Assembly: GCA_963703285.1 (NCBI GenBank)
Contig: OY969807.1
Location: forward strand, 1,760,001 to 1,824,000
Source of the DNA: an uncultured Nitrososphaerota archaeon
Lineage (GTDB): Archaea; Thermoproteota; Nitrososphaeria; Nitrososphaerales; Gagatemarchaeaceae
Direction of reading: 5' to 3'
DNA: 64,000 bases
Position numbers and translations under genes: made by a program. Of the stretch, positions 35,222-56,319 are shown piece after piece (positions within the stretch are counted from its first letter, which is position 1; each line of letters opens with the position of its first letter). The notes under the pieces were generated by a model, which was given only the letters and a program-made list of their open reading frames with translations, was not told the origin of the DNA and ran no database searches.

Positions 35222-36079
35222 CTATCTCGGGCTTCCGGCGTCCAGCAGCGCCTGACCCGCCCCCGAGGACTGGCCCAGCCTCTGGTCGATGGCCCTCGTC
35301 ACGCGCGACTGCAGCGACCTCTGCTCCTCGCTCGCGATTCCGAGGAGCTCCATCTCTTTGAGCGCGCTCTCGACAGCGTGGCCGAACGGGTGGTTGTTGT
35401 GGTACCCGTAGACCTTCTTGACCTTCGCGGCCACCTGCTTCACCTTGGGCACCCACGCCTCGAGCTCGCCGTCGGTGTACCTGTAGTTGTACCAAGGCCG
35501 GGCCCCCCGGCCGTGCCAGCGGATGAACGAGAAGTCGGCCGTCACGACGGGGTCAGGGGGGAGCAGGGGCTCGTCGACCACCGTGTACGCGACGTTGTGC
35601 CCCCTCAAGAGGTCCCAGGTCTCGGGGCGGAACCAGGACAGGTTCCTGAACTCCACGGCGAACCTGAGGTCGGACGGCAGGACCCCGAGGAACCCGGTCA
35701 GGGACCCCAGGTCCCTCTCGTAGGAGAAGCTGGGGGGCAGCTGGATGAGAAGGGCCCCGAGCTTGCCTGCGTCCTCCAGCGGCCTCATCACGTGCAGGAA
35801 CCGCATCAGGTCCTGCTGGACCCCCTTCCCGACGTCCAGCTTCTTGTCGTGGGTGATGAGCTTCGGGAGCTTCGCAGAGAATACGAAGTCCTCGGGCGTG
35901 ACGCTCGCAAATCCCTCGACCATCGCCTTCGCGGGGTAGGCGTAGTACGTCGAGTCTATCTCGACGGTCTTGAAGTACCTCGAGTAGTAGGTGAGCTTCC
36001 GCTTCTCGCCCTTGGGATAGAGGACGCCCTCCCACTCCTTGTAGGACCACCCCGAGGTCCCCACGTCGACGTTGGACAA
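35222..36079 (-). CDS. DUF72 (YecE-like) protein, copy 1
   Basis: GTSGWSY, VEIDSTYY, LIQLPPSF, AVEFRN, YIRWHG-like FIRWHGR, Y..NNH; TTG start inferred from TATA at 36106-36111. Confidence 0.92.
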   Translation of the reverse strand: MSNVDVGTSGWSYKEWEGVLYPKGEKRKLTYYSRYFKTVEIDSTYYAYPAKAMVEGFASVTPEDFVFSAKLPKLITHDKKLDVGKGVQQDLMRFLHVMRPLEDAGKLGALLIQLPPSFSYERDLGSLTGFLGVLPSDLRFAVEFRNLSWFRPETWDLLRGHNVAYTVVDEPLLPPDPVVTADFSFIRWHGRGARPWYNYRYTDGELEAWVPKVKQVAAKVKKVYGYHNNHPFGHAVESALKEMELLGIASEEQRSLQSRVTRAIDQRLGQSSGAGQALLDAGSPR

Positions 36080-36120
36080 CCTTCGGGTCGGGACGCCCCG
36101 CTGCGATTTAAGCCGTTGGG

Positions 36121-36131
36121 GTTCACTTTCA
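36121..36131 (+). promoter_or_regulatory. Putative archaeal DNA-damage-response box (GTTCACTTTCA)
   Basis: 10/11 match to the Halobacterium UV motif TTTCACTTTCA and contains the Sulfolobus ANTTTC element; lies between the divergent DUF72 and PolB2 operon. Confidence 0.45.
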
Positions 36132-36204
36132 GCCACCCCTCCCGAGAGACCCGCGGAGGCTCTAGCGCCCTCGTTATTAGCCCGGAGCGGCAGCGAACGG
36201 ACAG

Positions 36205-40883: not shown

Positions 40884-43583
40884 TCACAGTGGCTGGAACG
40901 TCCTCGGCGGCTGCGTGAAGTCGAACGCCTCCGACATGTCGTTCGCAGCGGCGTCCCTCGTGCTCAGGGGCGCGAGGCCGTAGCGCGTCTCGATGAACTT
41001 CAAGATCGACGTGTGGTCGTTGACGACGCTGTCGACGAAGCCCTTCTTTGCATAGGGGGAGACGACCAGGCAGCCGACGCGGAAGCCGTACCCGTATTTG
41101 TCGACCTGCGGCGGCGGGACGTGGTCGAAGAATCCCCCGAAGCAGTCCCAGGTCACGAAGGCCGCGACAGAGTTCCAGTACCTGCTGCTTCCGAGGCCGT
41201 TCAGGATCTCCTCTGCGACGTAGTTCTCTCCAGTCTGTATGTCAGCCGGAGGGTGCTCGTCCGAAGCCGCCGCGCCTATCACCCACGACACCTGCGGCAG
41301 CGTCCCGTTCTGGATGTCGGTGACTATCTGCTGAGGGGGGACGAACTTGGCCTTGGCGCCTGGCGTCTTCTGAACGTACTCGAAGTTCTGGAACCACGTC
41401 GTGGTACTGTACACCTTCCAGGAGACGCCGGCGCCGTCGAGCTCCTCGAATATGGGCGGGAAGGTGATCGTGGCCGGGGGGTTGTCGTCTATGATGCCCC
41501 CGCACGTACCTGCGACGAGGGAGAGGTGGTTGGGGAGGCTCTCGCTCATCACGGAAGTGAAGTAGGAGTCGCAGAGGACGTACTGCTCCGCCGCGTTCCA
41601 GTAGTGGGGTATGTCGCCCGAGTCGTAATAGCCCATCGTCTCCTTGCTGCCCTCCGAGTAGATGAAGCCGTCCATGCTGCCGCCGTCGTAGTCCTTGTGC
41701 GCCGAGCTCCAGGTGTGGTTCATGTCGACCGGGGTGAGGTTCGTGTCGTGGAACGGCGCGACGCAGCTCTTTGACCCGGCCTTCGTCGGAAGGCAGTAGG
41801 TCTTCCCGCGGGTCCCGTTGCCGCCGGGGAACGTCCCGAAGTAGTTGTCGAAGGTGTGGTTCTCCTGAAAGACGACAACGATGTTCTCTATGGGAGACGT
41901 CGCACCGCCCGCGGCCAGGGAGAGGCGCTGGGCGGCGCCCGGTTTGAATATCGGGGCCTCCGACCTGGGTCTGGACCGCGCCGCCCCGCCCCCGATGAGG
42001 GCGAGCAGCTTCACCCCGTCGGGGCTCCCGAAACCGGTGCAGGCGTCCCAGCCTGGCCGCGCACTGTAGGCGCCGTTGCTACCTGAGACGATGTCGCGAC
42101 AGTCGCCCGCCGGGTCGAGGGGCTGGGAGTAGAGGAGAGGGTTCAGGTAGCCCGCCACCTTGCCGCCCGTGGCGCTCGCCTGCTGGTTGATCAAGCCGAC
42201 GAGACCGCTCCACAACGGAGCCACCGCGCTGGTGCCGCCCACGTGAATCTGCTTCCCGTCGGCGCGCACGACGTAGCCTGTATCGGGGTCGGCGTCCCCG
42301 GCCACATCCGGTACCCCGCGCCCGGTCCGCCCTCCCGGGTTTGCAGAGGGCGGGACGTTCACGCCGCTCTGCCAGGTGGGGAGGGGAAAGACGTCGCTCA
42401 CACCTCCGCCCGTGGCGCCCCCCGATGGGAGGTCGTTCCATACCACCTCGCTCGCGATGGCGGTGCCGCTCTTCGCTTCCTGCATCTTCGTCCCACCGCA
42501 GCCGAGCACGTACTGGGAGGAGGCGGGATAGTCCACGTGAGCGAGGCCGTCGCTCACACCGTCGGATGAGCCGTCGTCACCTGATGCGGCCAGCACCGTC
42601 ACGCCGAGCATCGCCGCCTCCTGGAACACCTGGTCGAGGGCCTGGATGCCCTGCTGCGTCCAGGTCGACTCGGCGTCGCCCCAGCTTATCGATATGACCG
42701 AGGGTCTGTGCAGAGTGTCATGGATGGCGGCGCTCACGGCGTCGACGAACCCCGCGTCGGTGTTCGGGGCGAAATAGACGTAGATCTGCGCCTTGGGAGC
42801 GACGCTACCGATGACCTCGATGTCGAGCATCACCTCCGTGTCGGGACCGTTGGGGTCCCCCGTCGGGGCGTTTAGCGCCCCATCAACCGAGATTGCGAGG
42901 ACGCTCGGCGCCGTGATCCCGAGCTTCGAGAAGTAGGTCTGGAGGTCGCTGGCGACATACCCTCCTCCGAGCTCGACGACGGCTATCGACTGTCCGCTCC
43001 CATCCAGGTTCGAGGGGAAGCTGTAGAGGCCTGCGACCTTCGGAGGAGTATACGCCGTCCCCCCGGGGGCCTGCCTGATTCGCACGTGGGACCGCCCCTG
43101 CGGCCGGTTGTCCAGACCCAGGACGGCCAGCACCAGGGGGGCGACGTCGGCTGGCAGGTATATCGGCCCCGTCCGTCCACGGAAGACCCCCTTCGGGTGT
43201 CGGTAGCGCTCCAGCTTGACGCCGAAGGCCCTTCCCAACTGCGCCAGCGTCCCCGACAGGACGACGGACCGCCTCGCGGCGCTCTCTTCCACCATCACCA
43301 ATCCATATTCGCGCGCGAATGACTCCACCTTCGCGAGGTCTTCTTGAGTGGCCCCGTGCTGCACCGCGAACTCCCCGCGCGTCGGATAGTTGCGGTCTCT
43401 GGGGAGGCGGATGCTCATCTCCTCCAGCGCCGCCGCCCTCGCGCGCGAGGACGAGGAGCGGGGTCGAAGTACCACCGTCACCCGCGCAATCTCGTCGGGG
43501 TCAATCTTGCCCGAGACTCGCGCTCCAGGGAGGGGCGCACGATCGCTTCCAGCAAGGGGTGTTCTCTGTCCGTGTGGAGCCAT
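40884..43583 (-). CDS. Fusion of a sedolisin/kumamolisin (S53) peptidase and a phosphoesterase/phospholipase-C domain
   Basis: Pro-domain, EVMLD, SISWG, SGDDG, RGVPDV, GGTSAVAP; then ENHTFDNYFG, DEHP, GGFFDHV, DHTSILKFIE. Confidence 0.9.
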   Translation of the reverse strand: MAPHGQRTPLAGSDRAPLPGARVSGKIDPDEIARVTVVLRPRSSSSRARAAALEEMSIRLPRDRNYPTRGEFAVQHGATQEDLAKVESFAREYGLVMVEESAARRSVVLSGTLAQLGRAFGVKLERYRHPKGVFRGRTGPIYLPADVAPLVLAVLGLDNRPQGRSHVRIRQAPGGTAYTPPKVAGLYSFPSNLDGSGQSIAVVELGGGYVASDLQTYFSKLGITAPSVLAISVDGALNAPTGDPNGPDTEVMLDIEVIGSVAPKAQIYVYFAPNTDAGFVDAVSAAIHDTLHRPSVISISWGDAESTWTQQGIQALDQVFQEAAMLGVTVLAASGDDGSSDGVSDGLAHVDYPASSQYVLGCGGTKMQEAKSGTAIASEVVWNDLPSGGATGGGVSDVFPLPTWQSGVNVPPSANPGGRTGRGVPDVAGDADPDTGYVVRADGKQIHVGGTSAVAPLWSGLVGLINQQASATGGKVAGYLNPLLYSQPLDPAGDCRDIVSGSNGAYSARPGWDACTGFGSPDGVKLLALIGGGAARSRPRSEAPIFKPGAAQRLSLAAGGATSPIENIVVVFQENHTFDNYFGTFPGGNGTRGKTYCLPTKAGSKSCVAPFHDTNLTPVDMNHTWSSAHKDYDGGSMDGFIYSEGSKETMGYYDSGDIPHYWNAAEQYVLCDSYFTSVMSESLPNHLSLVAGTCGGIIDDNPPATITFPPIFEELDGAGVSWKVYSTTTWFQNFEYVQKTPGAKAKFVPPQQIVTDIQNGTLPQVSWVIGAAASDEHPPADIQTGENYVAEEILNGLGSSRYWNSVAAFVTWDCFGGFFDHVPPPQVDKYGYGFRVGCLVVSPYAKKGFVDSVVNDHTSILKFIETRYGLAPLSTRDAAANDMSEAFDFTQPPRTFQPL

Positions 43584-43685
43584 GCGTTCCCGGATTGCTC
43601 TCATACGTTATGAAGGTGTCCCCCTTACTTCCCCACTCTAGCCAAGTGCTTCAAGGGACGCGCCCACGTTCAACAAGATTGAGGG

Positions 43686-44951: not shown

Positions 44952-45485
44952 CTAGTAGAAGACGGGCTCCTTCTTGGCCGCCTTCCCGCGTTCCCCGGGT
45001 GGTTTGTACTTCCAGTCCAGTATGCGGCCCACATCCCTCTCCGTCCTCGCGGGGATCAGCCGCGGGGGTTCGTCCCGCGTCCAGATCCCCTGAGAGTTTA
45101 TGATCAGCCCCTTGCTCCGCGCCTTGATGGTCATGCCGATGGTGTGACCCTTTGGACCTGTGGCCCACATCAGCGTCACGCCCCAGGAGTCCACGCTCGG
45201 GCAGATGAAGAGGTTGACCTGGACGCCCCTGTAGGCGAAGTTGGAGATGACCTCGCCAAAGGATACCACCTCTCCACCCATCTTCCCGACGCGCTCCTTG
45301 ACCGCCTCGCGCCACGAACCGAAGTCGCGTCCCTTCGGGACGACGGCGAAGTCGACGTCGTGGACCACTGGCTCGTTCCTCCGGAGGCTGCCGGCAATCT
45401 CGGCTCTCGAGTAGAGGTCCTTCGTGCGCTCGAGGAAGTCCTCCGCGACCTCCCGAGCGACCTTCGGGTCGAGGTCCTTCTTCAT
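44952..45485 (-). CDS. Minimal DNA polymerase X (palm and thumb only)
   Basis: AGSLRR, HDVDF, QVNLF (third Asp is Asn), WATGP, ARSKGL, TERDV..IL...Y.PP.ER. Confidence 0.85.
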   Translation of the reverse strand: MKKDLDPKVAREVAEDFLERTKDLYSRAEIAGSLRRNEPVVHDVDFAVVPKGRDFGSWREAVKERVGKMGGEVVSFGEVISNFAYRGVQVNLFICPSVDSWGVTLMWATGPKGHTIGMTIKARSKGLIINSQGIWTRDEPPRLIPARTERDVGRILDWKYKPPGERGKAAKKEPVFY

Positions 45486-45501
45486 CTTGAAGCATCCGGC
45501 C

Positions 45502-46341
45502 CTATCTTATCTGGGAGAGGAGGCACTCCTGGGGTGTCTTGTCGTGCCTAATCCTCAGGATGAACGGCTCGCGCAGCTTCACGTCCTGGGTGACCTCCTG
45601 GAACCGCACCTCCACCACCGACCCGATTTTGACCTGTCTAGGATCCACGCTCTCGACGAAGGCCCCGACCTTCCCCAGGTCCACGCGCTCCCCGTTCTCC
45701 CCGTAGACGCCGACGTACCAGGACCTCGGCACCCCGGTCCGCTTCATCTCCTGCGTCTCCTCGTAGCCGACTATGAAGCAGTCGACCGTGTCGAACCGCT
45801 TCAGCTTGAGCCACGAGTTGGGCTGTCCGTACCTCGACGCCGGGTTCTTGACGATCAGACCCTCGCCGCCCTCCTTCACGACCTCCTCCATGAAGTCGAG
45901 TATCTCCTTCGAGCTCTTGGCGGTCCTGTATTCGACCTCCAAGTCCGTCCCCCTGAGGATCTCCCTCAGGATCTTCTTCCTCTCCGGGAGGAGCATCTCC
46001 CTGACGTCGCGGTCGTCCACCTGCAGTATGTCGAAGAGAAAGAGGCCCTCATCGGCCACGTACTCTCCGTCTAGGATCATCTGGTACGGGGCGTGGGTGA
46101 ACTCGGGGACGCGGGCGAAGACCTTCGGGCTGCTCTTCGGCGTGAACAGCATCCCGTGCTTGCTGGAGATCACCAGCTTCTCGCCGCTCTTGAAGAGGAA
46201 GATCCTGATCCCGTCCAGCTTCCGCTCGCAGATGGCGGGAAGTGGGTTCTTGAGCAGCCAGGTTGCCAGGTCGAGCTTGACGGCCTTGGCGTAGTTCTCG
46301 AGGACGAAGTTCTGGAGGACGTCGCTCAGGGCACTCGCCAG
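45502..46341 (-). CDS. Minimal ATP-dependent DNA ligase (NTase plus OB domains); CTG start inferred
   Basis: ERKLDGIR (motif I, upstream of the ORF-track start), ILDGEY, FDIL, GEGLIVK, WLKLKR, VEVRF, LREP..RIRHDK. Confidence 0.9.
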   Translation of the reverse strand: MASALSDVLQNFVLENYAKAVKLDLATWLLKNPLPAICERKLDGIRIFLFKSGEKLVISSKHGMLFTPKSSPKVFARVPEFTHAPYQMILDGEYVADEGLFLFDILQVDDRDVREMLLPERKKILREILRGTDLEVEYRTAKSSKEILDFMEEVVKEGGEGLIVKNPASRYGQPNSWLKLKRFDTVDCFIVGYEETQEMKRTGVPRSWYVGVYGENGERVDLGKVGAFVESVDPRQVKIGSVVEVRFQEVTQDVKLREPFILRIRHDKTPQECLLSQIR

Positions 46342-46356
46342 GGCAAGGTTTCCAGC

Positions 46357-47202
46357 CTACTTCGCAATCGCGACCTTGGGCTTCTTCTTGCGGGCGACGG
46401 GCACCGCAGGGAGCTGCTCCGACTCGCGGTCCTCCTGTAGCGCCCAGGCGTCGTCTAGCAGGAGTATCCCCTCGCTGAGCCCCATCAGCAACCAGAGTCT
46501 GCCGTCCTTCCTCTCGTAGGGGTAGACCACGCTGGTGTAGAACTGGTATCCCCTCCCCCAGGAGAAGAAGGAGACGAGGGCGGTGTCCTTCTGGAGCAGG
46601 TAGCGGGCCAGCTGCTTTACCCTCGAGCCCGTCTCCTTCACCTTCTTGTCCGTGTCGGGGCCGAGCTGGTATACCTCCTTGAACTTGTACTCCGAGAGCC
46701 TCTCGAGGGGGACGAAGCCATCGGGCTCGACCTCGATCTTGGTGGTCCTGTCGAAGGGCTCGATCTCCTCCTCTCCCTGCTTGTCCACTATCTGGCCCAG
46801 CGGAACTTCCACCCACTTTCCGGACATCTCCAGTTCGTTCTTGAGGAAGTATCTCTTCTCCGTCTTCACCGTGATCTGGTACTTTCCGTCGTACCTCACG
46901 TGCTTCCTCGCCTCGTCCCTGGAGACCTCCTGCATCTCGAGGCGTTCGCCGTTGGGTCCCTCCTTGTACCTGTAGACCACAGGCACCTCCCGGCTTACGA
47001 CCTCCCTCCCCGACTTCGTGTCTATCTTCACGTAGCTCACGGGCTGGAGGTTGCCGTGCGCCTTGGCTGCCCTTAGGTGGTACTCGACCGCTCCCAGACC
47101 CAGCGTCGGCAGGTTCACGCTAAGAACCCCCCTCCACGAGGCCCTCGGACCCGCGGCGCTGTCGGCCTGCTTCTCTACCTCGGAGAAGATGTTCTTGGCC
47201 AT
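46357..47202 (-). CDS. Divergent Ku (DNA end-binding) protein
   Basis: PRASWRGVLS resembles Ku RAIWKGAIS; KIEV..FVPLERL..YKFKEVYQLGPD resembles IEI..FVP..I...YF...YYL.PD; QLARYLLQKDTALVSFF; basic tail. Confidence 0.75.
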   Translation of the reverse strand: MAKNIFSEVEKQADSAAGPRASWRGVLSVNLPTLGLGAVEYHLRAAKAHGNLQPVSYVKIDTKSGREVVSREVPVVYRYKEGPNGERLEMQEVSRDEARKHVRYDGKYQITVKTEKRYFLKNELEMSGKWVEVPLGQIVDKQGEEEIEPFDRTTKIEVEPDGFVPLERLSEYKFKEVYQLGPDTDKKVKETGSRVKQLARYLLQKDTALVSFFSWGRGYQFYTSVVYPYERKDGRLWLLMGLSEGILLLDDAWALQEDRESEQLPAVPVARKKKPKVAIAK

Positions 47203-47387
47203 CTCGGATTCGTCAAGATAGGCATCAGCCCTTTATAATCGTGCTCGTATCTAGGAGGCTGAAGAAGCCACCACTAGAATACTCTGATGGGGCCCGGCGA
47301 CGCGGGCGCCGGGCGCGGTGGCCGAGGGTGGTCTATCTCCTCAACCCGTTCTCGATTTATAAGAGACCACGTGGCTCCATCCGCCCG

Positions 47388-51940: not shown

Positions 51941-52786
51941 TTACGGCCCCGAGGCGGTCTTCTTCGGGCCGGCGTGACGCGCGGCCTTGGACTTCATGGC
52001 CCTGCCCACCCTCGCACCCGTTTCCTTCTGCTCATCGCTGGCCGTCCCGAGCTTCTCCATCATCCTGAGGCTGTCCTCGACGGCGTGTCCCCGGGAGTGA
52101 TTGCAGAAATATCCGTAGACCTCCTTGACTCTTCCTTCGACCTCCCTGACCCTGGGGACCCACGCGTCCAGCTCCGCGTCGTCGTATCTGTAGTCGGTCC
52201 AGGTCTTCTCGCCTCTCCCGTGCCACCTTATCACGGCGAAGTCTGTCGTGACGACGGGCTCGGCGGGGAGCAGCGGCGCGTCGTCTATCACGCTCGCGAT
52301 CTTGCACTGCCTGAGCAGGTCCCACGTCTCCGCCCTGTGCCACGATTTGTTCCGGAACTCGACGGCGAACTTCACGTCGGTGGGCAGGGCTCCGAGGAAG
52401 TCAATCAGCCTCCCCAGACCGTCCTCGTACCCAAAGTCCTGCGGGAGCTGGAACACCAGGGGCCCGAGCTTTCCGGCGTCCTCCAGAGGTCTCAGGTCGA
52501 GCAGGAAGTGCATCAGGTCCCGGCCCGCTCCCTTCTGGACGTCGAGCCTCCTGTCGTGCGTTACAAGCCTCGGCACCCTCGCCGAGAAGACGAAGTCGTC
52601 GGGTGTAACCCTGACGCACGCCTGGATCATCGCCTTCGACGGATACTCGTAGAACGTCGTGTCGATCTCGACCGTCCTGAACGTCTTCGAGTAGTAGGCG
52701 AGCTTGCCCGTGTCGGCCCTGGGATAGAAGACTCCCTCCCATTCTCTATAGGACCAGCCCGAGGTGCCCAGACGCGTGATTGCCAA
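51941..52786 (-). CDS. DUF72 (YecE-like) protein, copy 2
   Basis: GTSGWSY, VEIDTTFY, FQLP, AVEFRN, IRWHGR; close paralogue of copy 1. Confidence 0.92.
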   Translation of the reverse strand: MAITRLGTSGWSYREWEGVFYPRADTGKLAYYSKTFRTVEIDTTFYEYPSKAMIQACVRVTPDDFVFSARVPRLVTHDRRLDVQKGAGRDLMHFLLDLRPLEDAGKLGPLVFQLPQDFGYEDGLGRLIDFLGALPTDVKFAVEFRNKSWHRAETWDLLRQCKIASVIDDAPLLPAEPVVTTDFAVIRWHGRGEKTWTDYRYDDAELDAWVPRVREVEGRVKEVYGYFCNHSRGHAVEDSLRMMEKLGTASDEQKETGARVGRAMKSKAARHAGPKKTASGP

Positions 52787-55494: not shown

Positions 55495-56319
55495 CTAGAA
55501 TCCTGTGAGTGTCCCCTGGGCCGTGTCGGTGGGTCCTAGGTCCTGCTTGTCCTTCCAGTCCAGCTCGATCATCCCGAGGAGCCTTCGGAACTCGTTGACC
55601 GATTCCGGACCGAACCCTGCGAAGTGGTTGTTGAAGAAGACGTAGGCGCTCTCAATCGAGTCGCTCTTCTCCTTGAGGTTCGAGGCCCACCTCTCCAGAT
55701 CCCCGCCGCGTTCCTTCTGCTTGCCCGAGAACTCGGTAATATCCCGCTCGCCGACCATCCGCAGGACCGCGAAGTCGGCCGTGACCTCCGCAGGTGTCTC
55801 CAGATACTGGTTCAGGGACCACGTCATCGCGACGTTGTGCTCCTCGAGCAGCCTGTACACCTCCGGAGTGAACCACGACTTGTGTCTGAACTCGATCGAG
55901 TGCTTGTACTTCGGGTTCAGGAATTCCACGAACTTCTTCATCACCGACATGTGCTTCTCGGCCTTGACCGACGGAGGGAGCTGGGCGACGATGGGTCCCA
56001 GCTTGAATCCGAGTTTGCCCACGACGCCGTAGAAGTAGGTGAGGGTGCTCTCGAAGTTCTCCAGCTTGCTTTCGTGGGTAATCTTCTTGGAGAGCTTCGG
56101 GCTGAAGACGAACCCGTCGGGCGTCGCCCTCTTCCACTGCTCTATCATGAACGGGCTGGGTATCCTGTAGAAGCTGGAATCTATCTCCACGCAGTCGAAG
56201 ACCCGCGAGTAGAACCTGAGGTAGTCCTTGGCGGGCAGGTCCTTTGAGTAGAAGGGCCCGGCCCAGTCCTTGTAGGACCAGCCACTGCATCCCACCTTGA
56301 CCTTCGTTGCGAGCGACAA
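55495..56319 (-). CDS. DUF72 (YecE-like) protein, copy 3, co-oriented upstream of dinB
   Basis: GCSGWSY, VEIDSSFY, QLPPS, IEFRH, FFNNH; C-terminal QGTLTGF. Confidence 0.93.
   Translation of the reverse strand: MSLATKVKVGCSGWSYKDWAGPFYSKDLPAKDYLRFYSRVFDCVEIDSSFYRIPSPFMIEQWKRATPDGFVFSPKLSKKITHESKLENFESTLTYFYGVVGKLGFKLGPIVAQLPPSVKAEKHMSVMKKFVEFLNPKYKHSIEFRHKSWFTPEVYRLLEEHNVAMTWSLNQYLETPAEVTADFAVLRMVGERDITEFSGKQKERGGDLERWASNLKEKSDSIESAYVFFNNHFAGFGPESVNEFRRLLGMIELDWKDKQDLGPTDTAQGTLTGF

Follow-up and report, generated by a model that had tools for sequence, protein, structure and literature searches.

To our knowledge, all prokaryotic end-joining systems described so far combine Ku with an AEP primase-polymerase. 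Eukaryotic NHEJ combines Ku with polymerases of family X. Archaea of the Archaeoglobus type have two-gene operons made of a canonical Ku and a small ligase, with no polymerase gene. Among viruses, the Pol X of ASFV works with the viral ligase, and the palm-plus-thumb-only form of PolX is so far known to us from a virus.

Associations of prokaryotic PolXs with NHEJ genes, both statistical and through shared operons, are reported in the main text of PMC9226535, which calls the PHP domain obligatorily present in these proteins and whose data set is heavily euryarchaeal (288 of 296 archaeal sequences). The main text of PMC7554672 attributes the bacterial-type Ku/LigD of soil ammonia oxidisers to acquisition from bacteria. 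In our own searches, soil ammonia oxidisers of the same order as the archaeon studied here had, in place of the cassette presented below, a canonical Ku (E-values of 1e-41 to 1e-45), in some cases with adjoining ORFs that read as LigD-type from their sequence.

Here we analysed a window of 64,000 nucleotides (positions 1,760,001 to 1,824,000 of contig OY969807.1, assembly GCA_963703285.1) from an uncultured archaeon of the Gagatemarchaeaceae. It contains a cassette of three genes for a divergent Ku, a minimal ligase and a PolX homologue, which probably make up an AEP-less variant of prokaryotic end joining, in roles that we infer below.

A three-gene cassette conserved in Nitrososphaerales

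The cassette consists of three co-oriented ORFs on the minus strand at 44952-47202, in the order Ku, ligase, PolX:

47231..47238, minus strand: TATA-like promoter box ttataaag (letters of the sequence), about 33 nt 5' of the Ku ATG
46357..47202, minus strand: divergent Ku homologue, 281 aa, with a TAG stop (Pfam, AF2 model, Foldseek)
45502..46329, minus strand: minimal ATP-dependent DNA ligase, ~275 aa from a CTG (Pfam, NCBIfam, motifs, PDB sequences)
44952..45485, minus strand: family-X polymerase homologue of minimal type, reduced to palm and thumb, 177 aa (Pfam, family profile, AF2, Foldseek)

This layout agrees with an earlier sequence-only reading of the window, which had placed three co-oriented genes behind a TATA box (ttataaag, at 47238-47231 when read along the minus strand). 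Boxes of the TTAAATA, TTATAAA or TTAATTA type stand at an equal distance 5' of Ku in almost every one of the related loci listed. The gaps of about 15 nt that had been reported hold between ligase and PolX, where 16 nt separate the stop from the ATG, but not between Ku and ligase, where the ligase CTG is separated from the Ku stop by 27 nt.

The arrangement is kept well beyond this genome. We found the order Ku-ligase-PolX in 40 of 47 related loci, all from MAGs of Nitrososphaerales/Thaumarchaeota, so that what had been proposed as the cassette of one TACK archaeon is conserved in a lineage, in which its synteny holds. Each gene has 41-89% amino acid identity across the 47 loci, and the three genes lie far beyond what chance would produce. 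Within the window's own genus, Ku and ligase are present in 12 of 12 loci and PolX in 11 (one partial), the twelfth locus ending before the PolX position; this set probably overlaps with the 47 loci. The cassette is single-copy in 16 of the 22 genomes of the genus. The flanking genes are not conserved, any neighbour being shared with the window in only 4 of the 47 loci, and the three genes thus travel together. At three distant loci (L066, L067 and G312) Ku adjoins the ligase without PolX. In a sample of 401 genomes from the whole phylum, the family profile had matches in two, including the genome of the window itself. In agreement with the earlier impression that the arrangement was undescribed, our literature searches brought up no account of an operon combining Ku, ligase and PolX, nor of this subfamily of Ku, including in the main texts of PMC9226535, PMC11936186, PMC10640624, PMC7554672 and bioRxiv 10.1101/2023.09.30.560322; supplementary neighbourhood tables (Table S3 of PMC9226535, Data Set S1 of PMC7554672) might list such loci.

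Two further observations concern particular relatives. Some have a LAGLIDADG-type insert between Ku and ligase, and at the distant loci L067 and L076 the Ku-ligase pair lies beside ORFs that we read as DNA methyltransferases from sequence motifs alone.

The changing flanks might suggest that the cassette is of viral or plasmid origin and serves the element's own DNA ends, circularising or protecting a linear genome, instead of chromosomal repair. The inserts and the methyltransferase-like neighbours fit this idea. Large DNA viruses, too, typically carry ligases and PolXs of minimal size, and in mycobacteriophages a phage-encoded Ku serves phage DNA ends. Yet, scans of IMG/VR viral contigs, each with two peptide patterns, found no relatives of Ku or PolX, the cassette is mostly single-copy in the genus, and the genes around it in the window, for a HAD hydrolase, an O-methyltransferase and an ArsR regulator, are ordinary ones in a region of flat GC content. 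We find such an origin very improbable.

No detectable AEP in the genome

The sequence-only reading had remarked that the operon encodes neither an AEP polymerase nor a phosphoesterase domain. This is the case, and the first absence extends to the whole genome, a 96%-complete single contig without any match to the LigD-type AEP (PF21686, LigD_Prim-Pol) in searches that detected the positive controls. The description of the system as minimal fits the small size of its proteins but not necessarily the system as a whole, because other candidate partners lie elsewhere in the genome: a stand-alone LigD-type phosphoesterase of 198 aa, ~310 kb away and unfused to a ligase (PF13298, LigD_N, E=2.6e-37), and a canonical PolX-PHP of 580 aa with an intact D-D-D triad. 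Another ATP-dependent ligase gene of the genome looks frameshifted.

A very divergent Ku

Sequence searches barely recognise the first protein. Its match to the Pfam Ku family (PF02735) has E=1.1e-4 and 22.6 bits, for a cut-off of 25, and no match to Pfam Ku came up when the genome as a whole was searched. Alignment with a canonical thaumarchaeal Ku by hhalign is weak (E=5.5e-4, probability 30%). Against PDB sequences, phmmer gave no Ku and only chance-level matches to NUDT5, and the profile of the 17-sequence family gave no Ku and nothing relevant. Pfam Ku is matched by 10 of the 17 family members at E<=0.01, the best reaching 3.4e-8. Most copies are annotated as hypothetical, as had been expected.

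The structural comparisons point to Ku. The AF2 model has a mean pLDDT of 78, and the PDB matches listed by Foldseek are all Ku80 or bacterial Ku chains (E ~1e-7, probability 1.00), in alignments of ~260 columns but with low TM scores (0.33-0.42). These matches, together with a homodimer model, bear out the Ku-like identity first suggested from the sequence. The homodimer scored 0.60 against 0.00 for the best control, a value that may partly reflect memory of solved Ku dimers; in the calibration of this score, the mark was reached by 20 of 30 solved homodimers and by 1 of 23 single chains. The modelled dimer has ~260 contacts, a partner pLDDT of at least 77, and at least 85% of contacts in agreement between runs. 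An insertion of ~20-30 residues in the protein, which the earlier reading had tentatively put in the bridge/ring region, is consistent with the alignments.

The models identify the 281-aa protein as a genuine, if highly divergent, Ku with predicted end binding, and the combination of Ku fold and modelled intertwined dimer points to threading onto free DNA ends. The homodimer would encircle the broken DNA end, and its lysine-rich C-terminal tail (KKKPKVAIAK) may help to hold the DNA and to recruit partners, as in bacterial Ku.

A minimal ligase with an unusual start codon

By its motifs I-VI, the second gene encodes a minimal ATP-dependent DNA ligase, made of nucleotidyltransferase and OB domains, with no DNA-binding domain and no Pfam match to BRCT. 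The suggestion of a minimal ligase with an OB fold and motifs I, III, IIIa, IV and V is strengthened by the invariance of motifs I (E.K.DG), III (ILD.E), IIIa (FD), IV (EG..K), V (WLK.K) and VI (R.DK) in 39 aligned relatives, window included. Its PDB sequence matches are ATP-dependent ligases, from 1.5e-15, and its best NCBIfam match is the NHEJ ligase domain (NHEJ_ligase_lig, TIGR02779, 1.8e-30, under its cut-off). In the end-joining reading that we favour, this ligase would seal the break.

An open frame extends from 46356 to 45502; it begins immediately after the Ku TAG and continues the Ku reading frame. Its 284 codons fit the length of ~280 aa initially given to the protein, but the start is non-canonical in this genome. 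There is no ATG, GTG or TTG in the frame before the motif I lysine, and the first canonical start, an internal GTG at 46173, leaves 223 aa without motif I (Pfam DNA_ligase_A_M matches this shorter ORF at 4.2e-17). At the position where the ligases of relatives start there is a CTG (46329-46327), which would give ~275 aa. Among the 39 aligned relatives the start is canonical in 37 (ATG in 26, TTG in 9, GTG in 2). A sequencing error was considered and set aside, since short-read contigs from two runs have the identical CTG, although both runs come from one study, which may include the source sample, and their agreement is not independent proof. We also rejected a conserved Ku-ligase fusion, or recoding by read-through of the TAG, because the frames of relatives differ and their ligases have their own ATG, TTG or GTG.

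Without a canonical start codon, expression of the ligase in this genome is uncertain. The system might even be decaying here, the ligase start being lost and the protein no longer made: almost all relatives have a canonical start where this genome has a CTG, the short-read contigs contain the CTG too, and the apparent frameshift in another ATP-dependent ligase gene could be seen in the same light. This would, however, leave a 284-codon frame that is fully open and keeps all catalytic motifs, next to intact Ku and PolX genes, and a protein could still arise by CTG initiation, by re-initiation 27 nt past the Ku stop, or by rare read-through of the TAG. We therefore regard decay as improbable.

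A palm-plus-thumb PolX with an altered active site

The third protein was modelled with confidence (pLDDT of 90.7), and Foldseek matched the model to Pol beta, Pol lambda and the PolX of T. thermophilus (TMq 0.72-0.78). Its sole Pfam match is the thumb (DNA_pol_B_thumb, 4.9e-10), with none to BRCT, and the best single-sequence PDB match of this thumb after T. thermophilus PolX is Pol mu. The family profile detects T. thermophilus PolX (1.3e-10) and also ASFV Pol X (1.6e-8), the latter along its full length, with positions 13-166 aligned to residues 22-177 of a 178-residue chain. Alignments to T. thermophilus PolX run from its residue 170-180 to ~315 of 575, and the 177-aa protein has no 8-kDa, fingers or PHP domains. 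In architecture it resembles the ASFV enzyme, a PolX reduced to palm and thumb. A recent duplication of the host PolX was ruled out, because identity to the palm-thumb of the canonical PolX of this genome is only 31%.

The active site is where the protein departs from its homologues. The two DxD aspartates (D43 and D45) and the GS.RR motif are invariant in the aligned relatives, but the third catalytic Asp is replaced by Asn (N91) in three independent alignments, and this Asn is invariant in 15 of 15 aligned relatives. The three-carboxylate triad (DxD ... D) is hence absent from the mini-PolX, whereas the genome's canonical PolX keeps Asp at the aligned position. The earlier description of a minimal PolX is right as to the palm-plus-thumb fold, but an enzyme with a D-D-N site may not fill gaps: the invariant Asn makes polymerase activity doubtful. 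Prokaryotic PolXs with altered triads had no polymerase activity in vitro, according to the main text of PMC9226535.

These data bear on whether PolX stands in for the AEP as a gap-filling polymerase with full activity, as a strict version of the earlier reading would have it, in which case the cassette would be a self-sufficient machine of Ku, ligase and PolX in the eukaryotic style. The confident fold, the invariant DxD and GS.RR residues and the genome without a detected AEP favour it, and its retention in 40 of 47 loci, with 61-83% identity, shows that PolX is under selection. Against these stand the Asn at the third catalytic position in all aligned relatives and the inactivity of the altered-triad enzymes just mentioned. 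Self-sufficiency is not required either, given the phosphoesterase and the PolX-PHP encoded elsewhere. We see this as rather unlikely. In the AEP-less variant of prokaryotic end joining that we prefer, the 177-aa PolX would occupy the place that the AEP primase-polymerase has in LigD systems and, because the site is D-D-N and not D-D-D in every relative, it would more plausibly be a weak or unusual nucleotidyltransferase, or a non-catalytic factor binding and bridging ends, than an efficient gap-filler.

DUF72 neighbours and the possible processing of ends

The window also contains three of the four DUF72 genes of the genome, paralogues outside the operon that are candidate accessory genes:

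35240..36136, minus strand: DUF72 paralogue (Pfam DUF72, 1.2e-65)
51941..52786, minus strand: DUF72 paralogue (Pfam DUF72, 2e-61)
55495..56319, minus strand: DUF72 paralogue (Pfam DUF72, 6.4e-57)

Of the 47 related loci, 16 have DUF72 genes, which in 15 of them lie immediately beside the cassette, on either side and either strand. The relevant passages of PMC3828134 and PMC11791011 describe DUF72 proteins as predicted EndoIV/UVDE-like enzymes. These predicted TIM-barrel nucleases are a possible fourth part of the system. Cleaning of the ends may be provided in trans, by them, by the stand-alone phosphoesterase or by the canonical PolX-PHP.

A cassette of PolX and ligase is also compatible with single-strand-break or base-excision repair. 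It could then act on single-strand breaks or abasic sites, in the manner of ASFV Pol X and its ligase, and not on double-strand breaks, with Ku either sensing nicks or AP sites or acting as a lyase. The mini-PolX matches the ASFV repair enzyme over its whole length, PMC4245934 reports that bacterial Ku proteins process abasic sites, and the EndoIV/UVDE-like prediction for DUF72 would suit such a role. Several results nevertheless speak for double-strand ends: the fold of Ku and the intertwined form of its modelled dimer suggest threading onto free ends, the best profile of the ligase is the NHEJ ligase domain, and distant relatives have Ku and ligase without PolX. The altered PolX site is also unfavourable to base-excision gap filling. 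Repair of single-strand lesions in place of end joining strikes us as a long shot.

Taken to its full extent, the end-joining reading would describe an AEP-independent pathway in Gagatemarchaeaceae-type Thaumarchaeota, in which the divergent Ku recruits the ligase and the D-D-N PolX, the latter either bringing ends into synapsis without catalysis or performing new chemistry as an enzyme, and DUF72 is the end-cleaning nuclease. With all these parts together the scheme is unlikely, in our opinion. If true, it would be the first prokaryotic Ku-PolX partnership and, through end cleaning, the first functional context for DUF72. To the Ku / Pol lambda-mu / ligase arrangement of eukaryotes it would be an independent, or perhaps an ancestral, counterpart.

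Some consequences concern the cassette itself. The presence of Ku, ligase and a PolX homologue in genomes without AEP suggests that a Ku-PolX partnership can arise in prokaryotes, and the trio is small and tractable (281, ~275 and 177 residues) for learning how Ku recruits PolX. It also allows one to ask about the function of a PolX palm whose metal-A position is occupied by Asn. The palm-plus-thumb-only PolX occurs in cells too. The locus marks out a subfamily of Ku that largely escapes standard searches, and for DUF72, a family as yet uncharacterised, it provides a context in DNA repair that can be tested.

Comparison with known systems

Among single proteins, a close parallel is the ASFV repair Pol X (174 aa), which is similar in length to the cassette PolX, likewise consists of palm and thumb only, and works with a viral ligase, as the cassette PolX is encoded next to a small ATP-dependent one. 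It differs in having Asp at the third catalytic position, where the archaeal family has Asn, and in belonging to a virus without a Ku partner, whereas the cassette PolX is cellular and archaeal. A substitution in the palm triad is also found in the noncanonical prokaryotic PolXs presented in the main text of PMC9226535. These, however, keep the PHP exonuclease in which their activity resides, and the mini-PolX has no PHP, 8-kDa or fingers domain.

With the classical NHEJ of eukaryotes (Ku70/80, ligase IV-XRCC4, Pol lambda, Pol mu) the cassette shares the combination of protein families. The components differ: one Ku gene in place of a heterodimer with vWA and SAP domains, a ligase without a DNA-binding domain or a Pfam BRCT match, and a PolX without a BRCT match, 8-kDa domain or fingers and with an altered active site. 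The likeness is probably one of analogy, and the sequence-only reading's term "eukaryote-like" applies to the kind of polymerase only, given the single-gene Ku, the LigD-like size and profile of the ligase and the lack of BRCT matches in ligase and PolX.

Operons of the Archaeoglobus type also have Ku directly beside a minimal ligase, and differ in lacking the divergent Ku and the PolX found here. Bacterial and archaeal AP-NHEJ (Ku with LigD, or the split Ku/Lig/Pol/PE of Methanocella paludicola) resembles the cassette in its single Ku gene, whose product is here modelled as a homodimer, and in a ligase that has the NHEJ ligase domain as best profile, is of LigD-domain size and lies in the same operon as Ku. 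A LigD-type phosphoesterase is present in this genome as well, but unlinked to the cassette. The Ku of the cassette is set apart by a divergence so high that Pfam and PDB sequence searches barely detect or miss it, and the cassette differs from the LigD and Methanocella systems above all in its polymerase, with no AEP found and a PolX homologue in its place.

Organization of the cassette

Our results suggest that the cassette most likely performs a variant form of prokaryotic end joining particular to its lineage, a wholly predicted role that we favor with moderate confidence. A Ku homodimer would bind DNA ends, the minimal ligase would seal them, and the 177-aa mini-PolX would take the niche of AEP, the primase-type polymerase of LigD systems, with end cleaning supplied in trans. 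The window covers bases 1760001-1824000 of a 2.25-Mb single-contig genome that is 96% complete. The sequence-only reading had the gene count and coordinates of the three minus-strand ORFs right, and overlooked both the missing canonical start of the ligase and the Asn that stands for the third catalytic Asp of PolX.

46357-47202, minus strand: Ku ORF, 281 aa
46356 to 45502 (open), minus strand: ligase frame, 284 codons
44952-45485, minus strand: PolX ORF, 177 aa
47238-47231, minus strand: TATA-like box ttataaag, about 33 nt upstream of the Ku ATG

A TATA-like box at a similar distance upstream of Ku recurs in nearly all related loci.

A deeply divergent Ku

We conclude that the 281-aa protein is a true Ku, member of a deeply divergent subfamily. 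It lies at the edge of detection by sequence (Pfam Ku, E=1.1e-4, 22.6 bits for a cut-off of 25): NCBIfam gave no match, the Pfam Ku search over the whole genome gave none, and no Ku was matched among PDB sequences, either by phmmer or by a 17-sequence family profile. Pfam Ku is matched by 10 of these 17 members (best E 3.4e-8), and a whole-library search for the subfamily returned only 61 cluster representatives. As anticipated from sequence alone, most clusters of close homologues are named "hypothetical protein" at NCBI, two being named "Ku protein".

When the AlphaFold2 model (mean pLDDT 78) was compared with the PDB by Foldseek, the matches listed included only Ku80 and bacterial Ku (B. 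subtilis, M. tuberculosis), at E about 1e-7, probability 1.00 and some 260 aligned columns. Their TM was low (0.33-0.42), in our reading the value to be expected of a single Ku monomer, given its extended arms. A two-copy model scored 0.60 against 0.00 for the best control, with about 260 contacts, partner pLDDT of at least 77 and at least 85% contact agreement between runs; on calibration, the mark was reached by 20 of the 30 solved homodimers and by 1 of the 23 single chains. Part of the score may come from the solved Ku dimers. Profile-profile comparison with seven canonical Ku of related ammonia oxidisers was weak (E=5.5e-4, probability 30%) and brought plausible blocks into register, the N-terminal W-x-G-x-[IL]-S strand among them. 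About 20 residues (roughly 125-148) were left unmatched, which agrees with the insertion suspected earlier. At its C-terminus the protein has a conserved tail rich in lysine (KKKPKV.ISK).

One contig of a single MAG holds both a full cassette (L055) and a second Ku paralogue (L061), 55% identical to that of the window. With such a pair, some members might form Ku heterodimers.

The ligase and its start codon

The ligase frame encodes nucleotidyltransferase and OB domains, without an N-terminal DNA-binding domain. Motifs I, III, IIIa, IV, V and VI are all present and invariant in 39 aligned relatives, which bears out the proposed minimal ligase. Of the curated profiles, the NHEJ ligase domain TIGR02779 matches best (1.8e-30, under its cut-off).

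Upstream of the motif I lysine there is no ATG, GTG or TTG, and the only ORF with a canonical start, from an internal GTG at 46173 (223 aa), leaves motif I out. Relatives' ligases begin at a conserved M-S-[DE] motif; the start codon among the 39 is ATG (26), TTG (9), GTG (2) or, in the window alone, CTG (46329-46327), one locus not being resolved by the search pattern. Short-read contigs from two runs of one study cover the CTG without difference, which makes it a real change in that population. The lost start speaks for a system decaying in the window's strain, which we nevertheless hold to be improbable; ligase protein could be made there by CTG initiation, by re-initiation 27 nt past the Ku stop, or by rare read-through. 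In the window the Ku TAG falls in phase with the ligase frame; in most relatives it does not, which excludes a conserved Ku-ligase fusion.

In related loci L009 and L011 (also L046 and L060), an insert of about 500-600 nt separates the Ku stop from the ligase start, which is TTG in all four. The L011 insert encodes a LAGLIDADG-type motif (AYLAGIIDGEG).

A PolX reduced to palm and thumb

PolX matches the Pfam Pol beta thumb domain (4.9e-10) and residues 170-315 of T. thermophilus (Tth) PolX, and its family profile matches ASFV Pol X end to end (positions 13-166 on residues 22-177/178, E=1.6e-8). In superposition, a confident AlphaFold2 model (pLDDT 90.7) reaches TMq 0.72-0.78 with Pol beta, Pol lambda and Tth PolX. 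These matches and the superposition indicate a protein of palm and thumb only, without 8-kDa, fingers or PHP domain. Its build is that of ASFV Pol X, with an altered triad, and we see only a small chance that the cassette is an ASFV-like module for single-strand-break or base-excision repair.

Neither the DxD pair D43 and D45 nor the GS.RR motif varies. The strand carrying the third catalytic residue reads VQVNLF, with Asn91 in place of Asp; this Asn aligns to the third catalytic Asp of Tth PolX, ASFV Pol X and the genome's canonical PolX, and is invariant in 15 of 15 aligned PolX sequences. Such conservation points to selection for something besides efficient polymerisation, and leaves the catalytic competence of the mini-PolX doubtful. 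The stricter claim of the sequence-only reading, an active gap-filling polymerase, is rather unlikely because of Asn91. One published account (PMC9226535) describes altered-triad prokaryotic PolXs as without polymerase activity and working through the PHP exonuclease, and treats the PHP domain as an obligatory part of prokaryotic PolXs.

Distribution and neighbors

Scanning one genome per GTDB species gave 47 related loci, all in records titled Nitrososphaerales, Thaumarchaeota, Nitrososphaerota, Nitrososphaeria, Nitrosopumilales or archaeon, one being Candidatus Gagatemarchaeum. Ku, ligase and PolX follow in that order in 40 of them. Among the others, L051 and L065 run into the end of their contigs, no ligase is seen in the roughly 600 nt of L044 past Ku or in the remaining 1.9 kb of L058, L061 is a solitary Ku in a genome with a full cassette, and L066 and L067 have Ku (55-59% identical) and ligase with no PolX within 4 kb. 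Ku is present in 16 of 22 genomes of the window's genus and in the one genome of a second; the full cassette also occurs in a third genus of the family (L075). The Ku query matched 0 of 16 genomes from other families of the order, and the family profile 2 of 401 sampled across the phylum, the window's own included. A different family of the phylum has the order ligase, Ku and an ORF read from motifs as a methyltransferase. Since distant loci have Ku and ligase but lack PolX, Ku and ligase are the old core, and PolX joined in the lineage that includes the window.

Within the two most distant Ku-ligase loci, the immediate neighbor of the pair is an ORF whose motifs read as a SAM-dependent DNA methyltransferase (L067, 3996-4979; L076, 1739-2680), a hint that the ancestral two-gene module belonged to a mobile-element setting. 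That the present cassette derives from a mobile element and serves the element's own DNA ends seems very improbable to us. Flanks are not conserved, any neighbor being common with the window in 4 of the 47 loci.

Clustering the flanking ORFs of the 47 loci revealed a DUF72 (PF01904) gene in 16. It directly adjoins the cassette in 15 (L024, L025, L027, L030, L031, L036-L039, L043, L048-L050, L055, L057), ahead of Ku or behind PolX, and may lie on either strand. The window's genome has four, three of them in the window within 11 kb of the cassette.

35240-36136, minus strand: DUF72 gene (PF01904)
51941-52786, minus strand: DUF72 gene (PF01904)
55495-56319, minus strand: DUF72 gene (PF01904)

DUF72 proteins have been described as uncharacterised TIM barrels, kin to UV-damage endonuclease (UVDE) and endonuclease IV (PMC11791011, PMC3828134). 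DUF72 is a possible end-cleaning fourth component, and we offer it as a lead.

A 906-aa ORF at 40884-43604 (minus strand) resembles, by eye, a fusion of a sedolisin-type (S53) peptidase with a phosphoesterase/phospholipase C-like domain; the closest relatives (L021, L022) also have homologues of it near the cassette.

Other repair genes of the genome and the order

The operon lacks an AEP, as first noted, and no LigD-type AEP polymerase (PF21686) was found in the 96%-complete genome, with positive controls. A LigD-type phosphoesterase lies about 310 kb from the cassette, unlinked to any Ku, ligase or polymerase gene.

G000:C1 (the genome's single contig) about 2116570-2117166 (L018 1438-2034), plus strand: stand-alone LigD-type 3'-phosphoesterase, 198 aa (PF13298, E=2.6e-37)

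The genome also holds a canonical 580-aa PolX-PHP with its D-D-D triad intact, and two larger ATP-dependent ligases, one frameshifted in appearance. This second large ligase (G000:C1 about 105507-106089; L014 952-2625, minus strand) has normal DNA-binding and adenylation domains followed by Arg/Gly-rich nonsense, the Pfam match continuing in another frame, a pattern suggestive of a frameshift or an assembly indel.

The families of the order to which soil ammonia oxidisers belong have a canonical Ku instead (Pfam E 1e-41 to 1e-45, 7 genomes), in some cases beside ORFs read from sequence as LigD-type ligase or polymerase. The ammonia-oxidiser system has been presented as a complete NHEJ complex acquired from bacteria (PMC7554672). 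Two unrelated-looking Ku systems are thus found within the order.

Comparison with known systems

The arrangement had been thought undescribed, and our literature search, supplements outside its scope, found neither such a Ku-Lig-PolX operon nor this Ku subfamily described in print. In its main text, the Gagatemarchaeaceae genomics paper lacks the terms DNA repair, end joining, ligase and polymerase. Published noncanonical PolXs (PMC9226535) differ from the mini-PolX, which has no PHP domain. The eukaryote-like composition first proposed stands for the polymerase family only: the Ku is not heterodimeric, and a Pfam scan of ligase and PolX gave no BRCT match. The cassette would operate in the manner of Ku-LigD end joining, but without the AEP that defines LigD.
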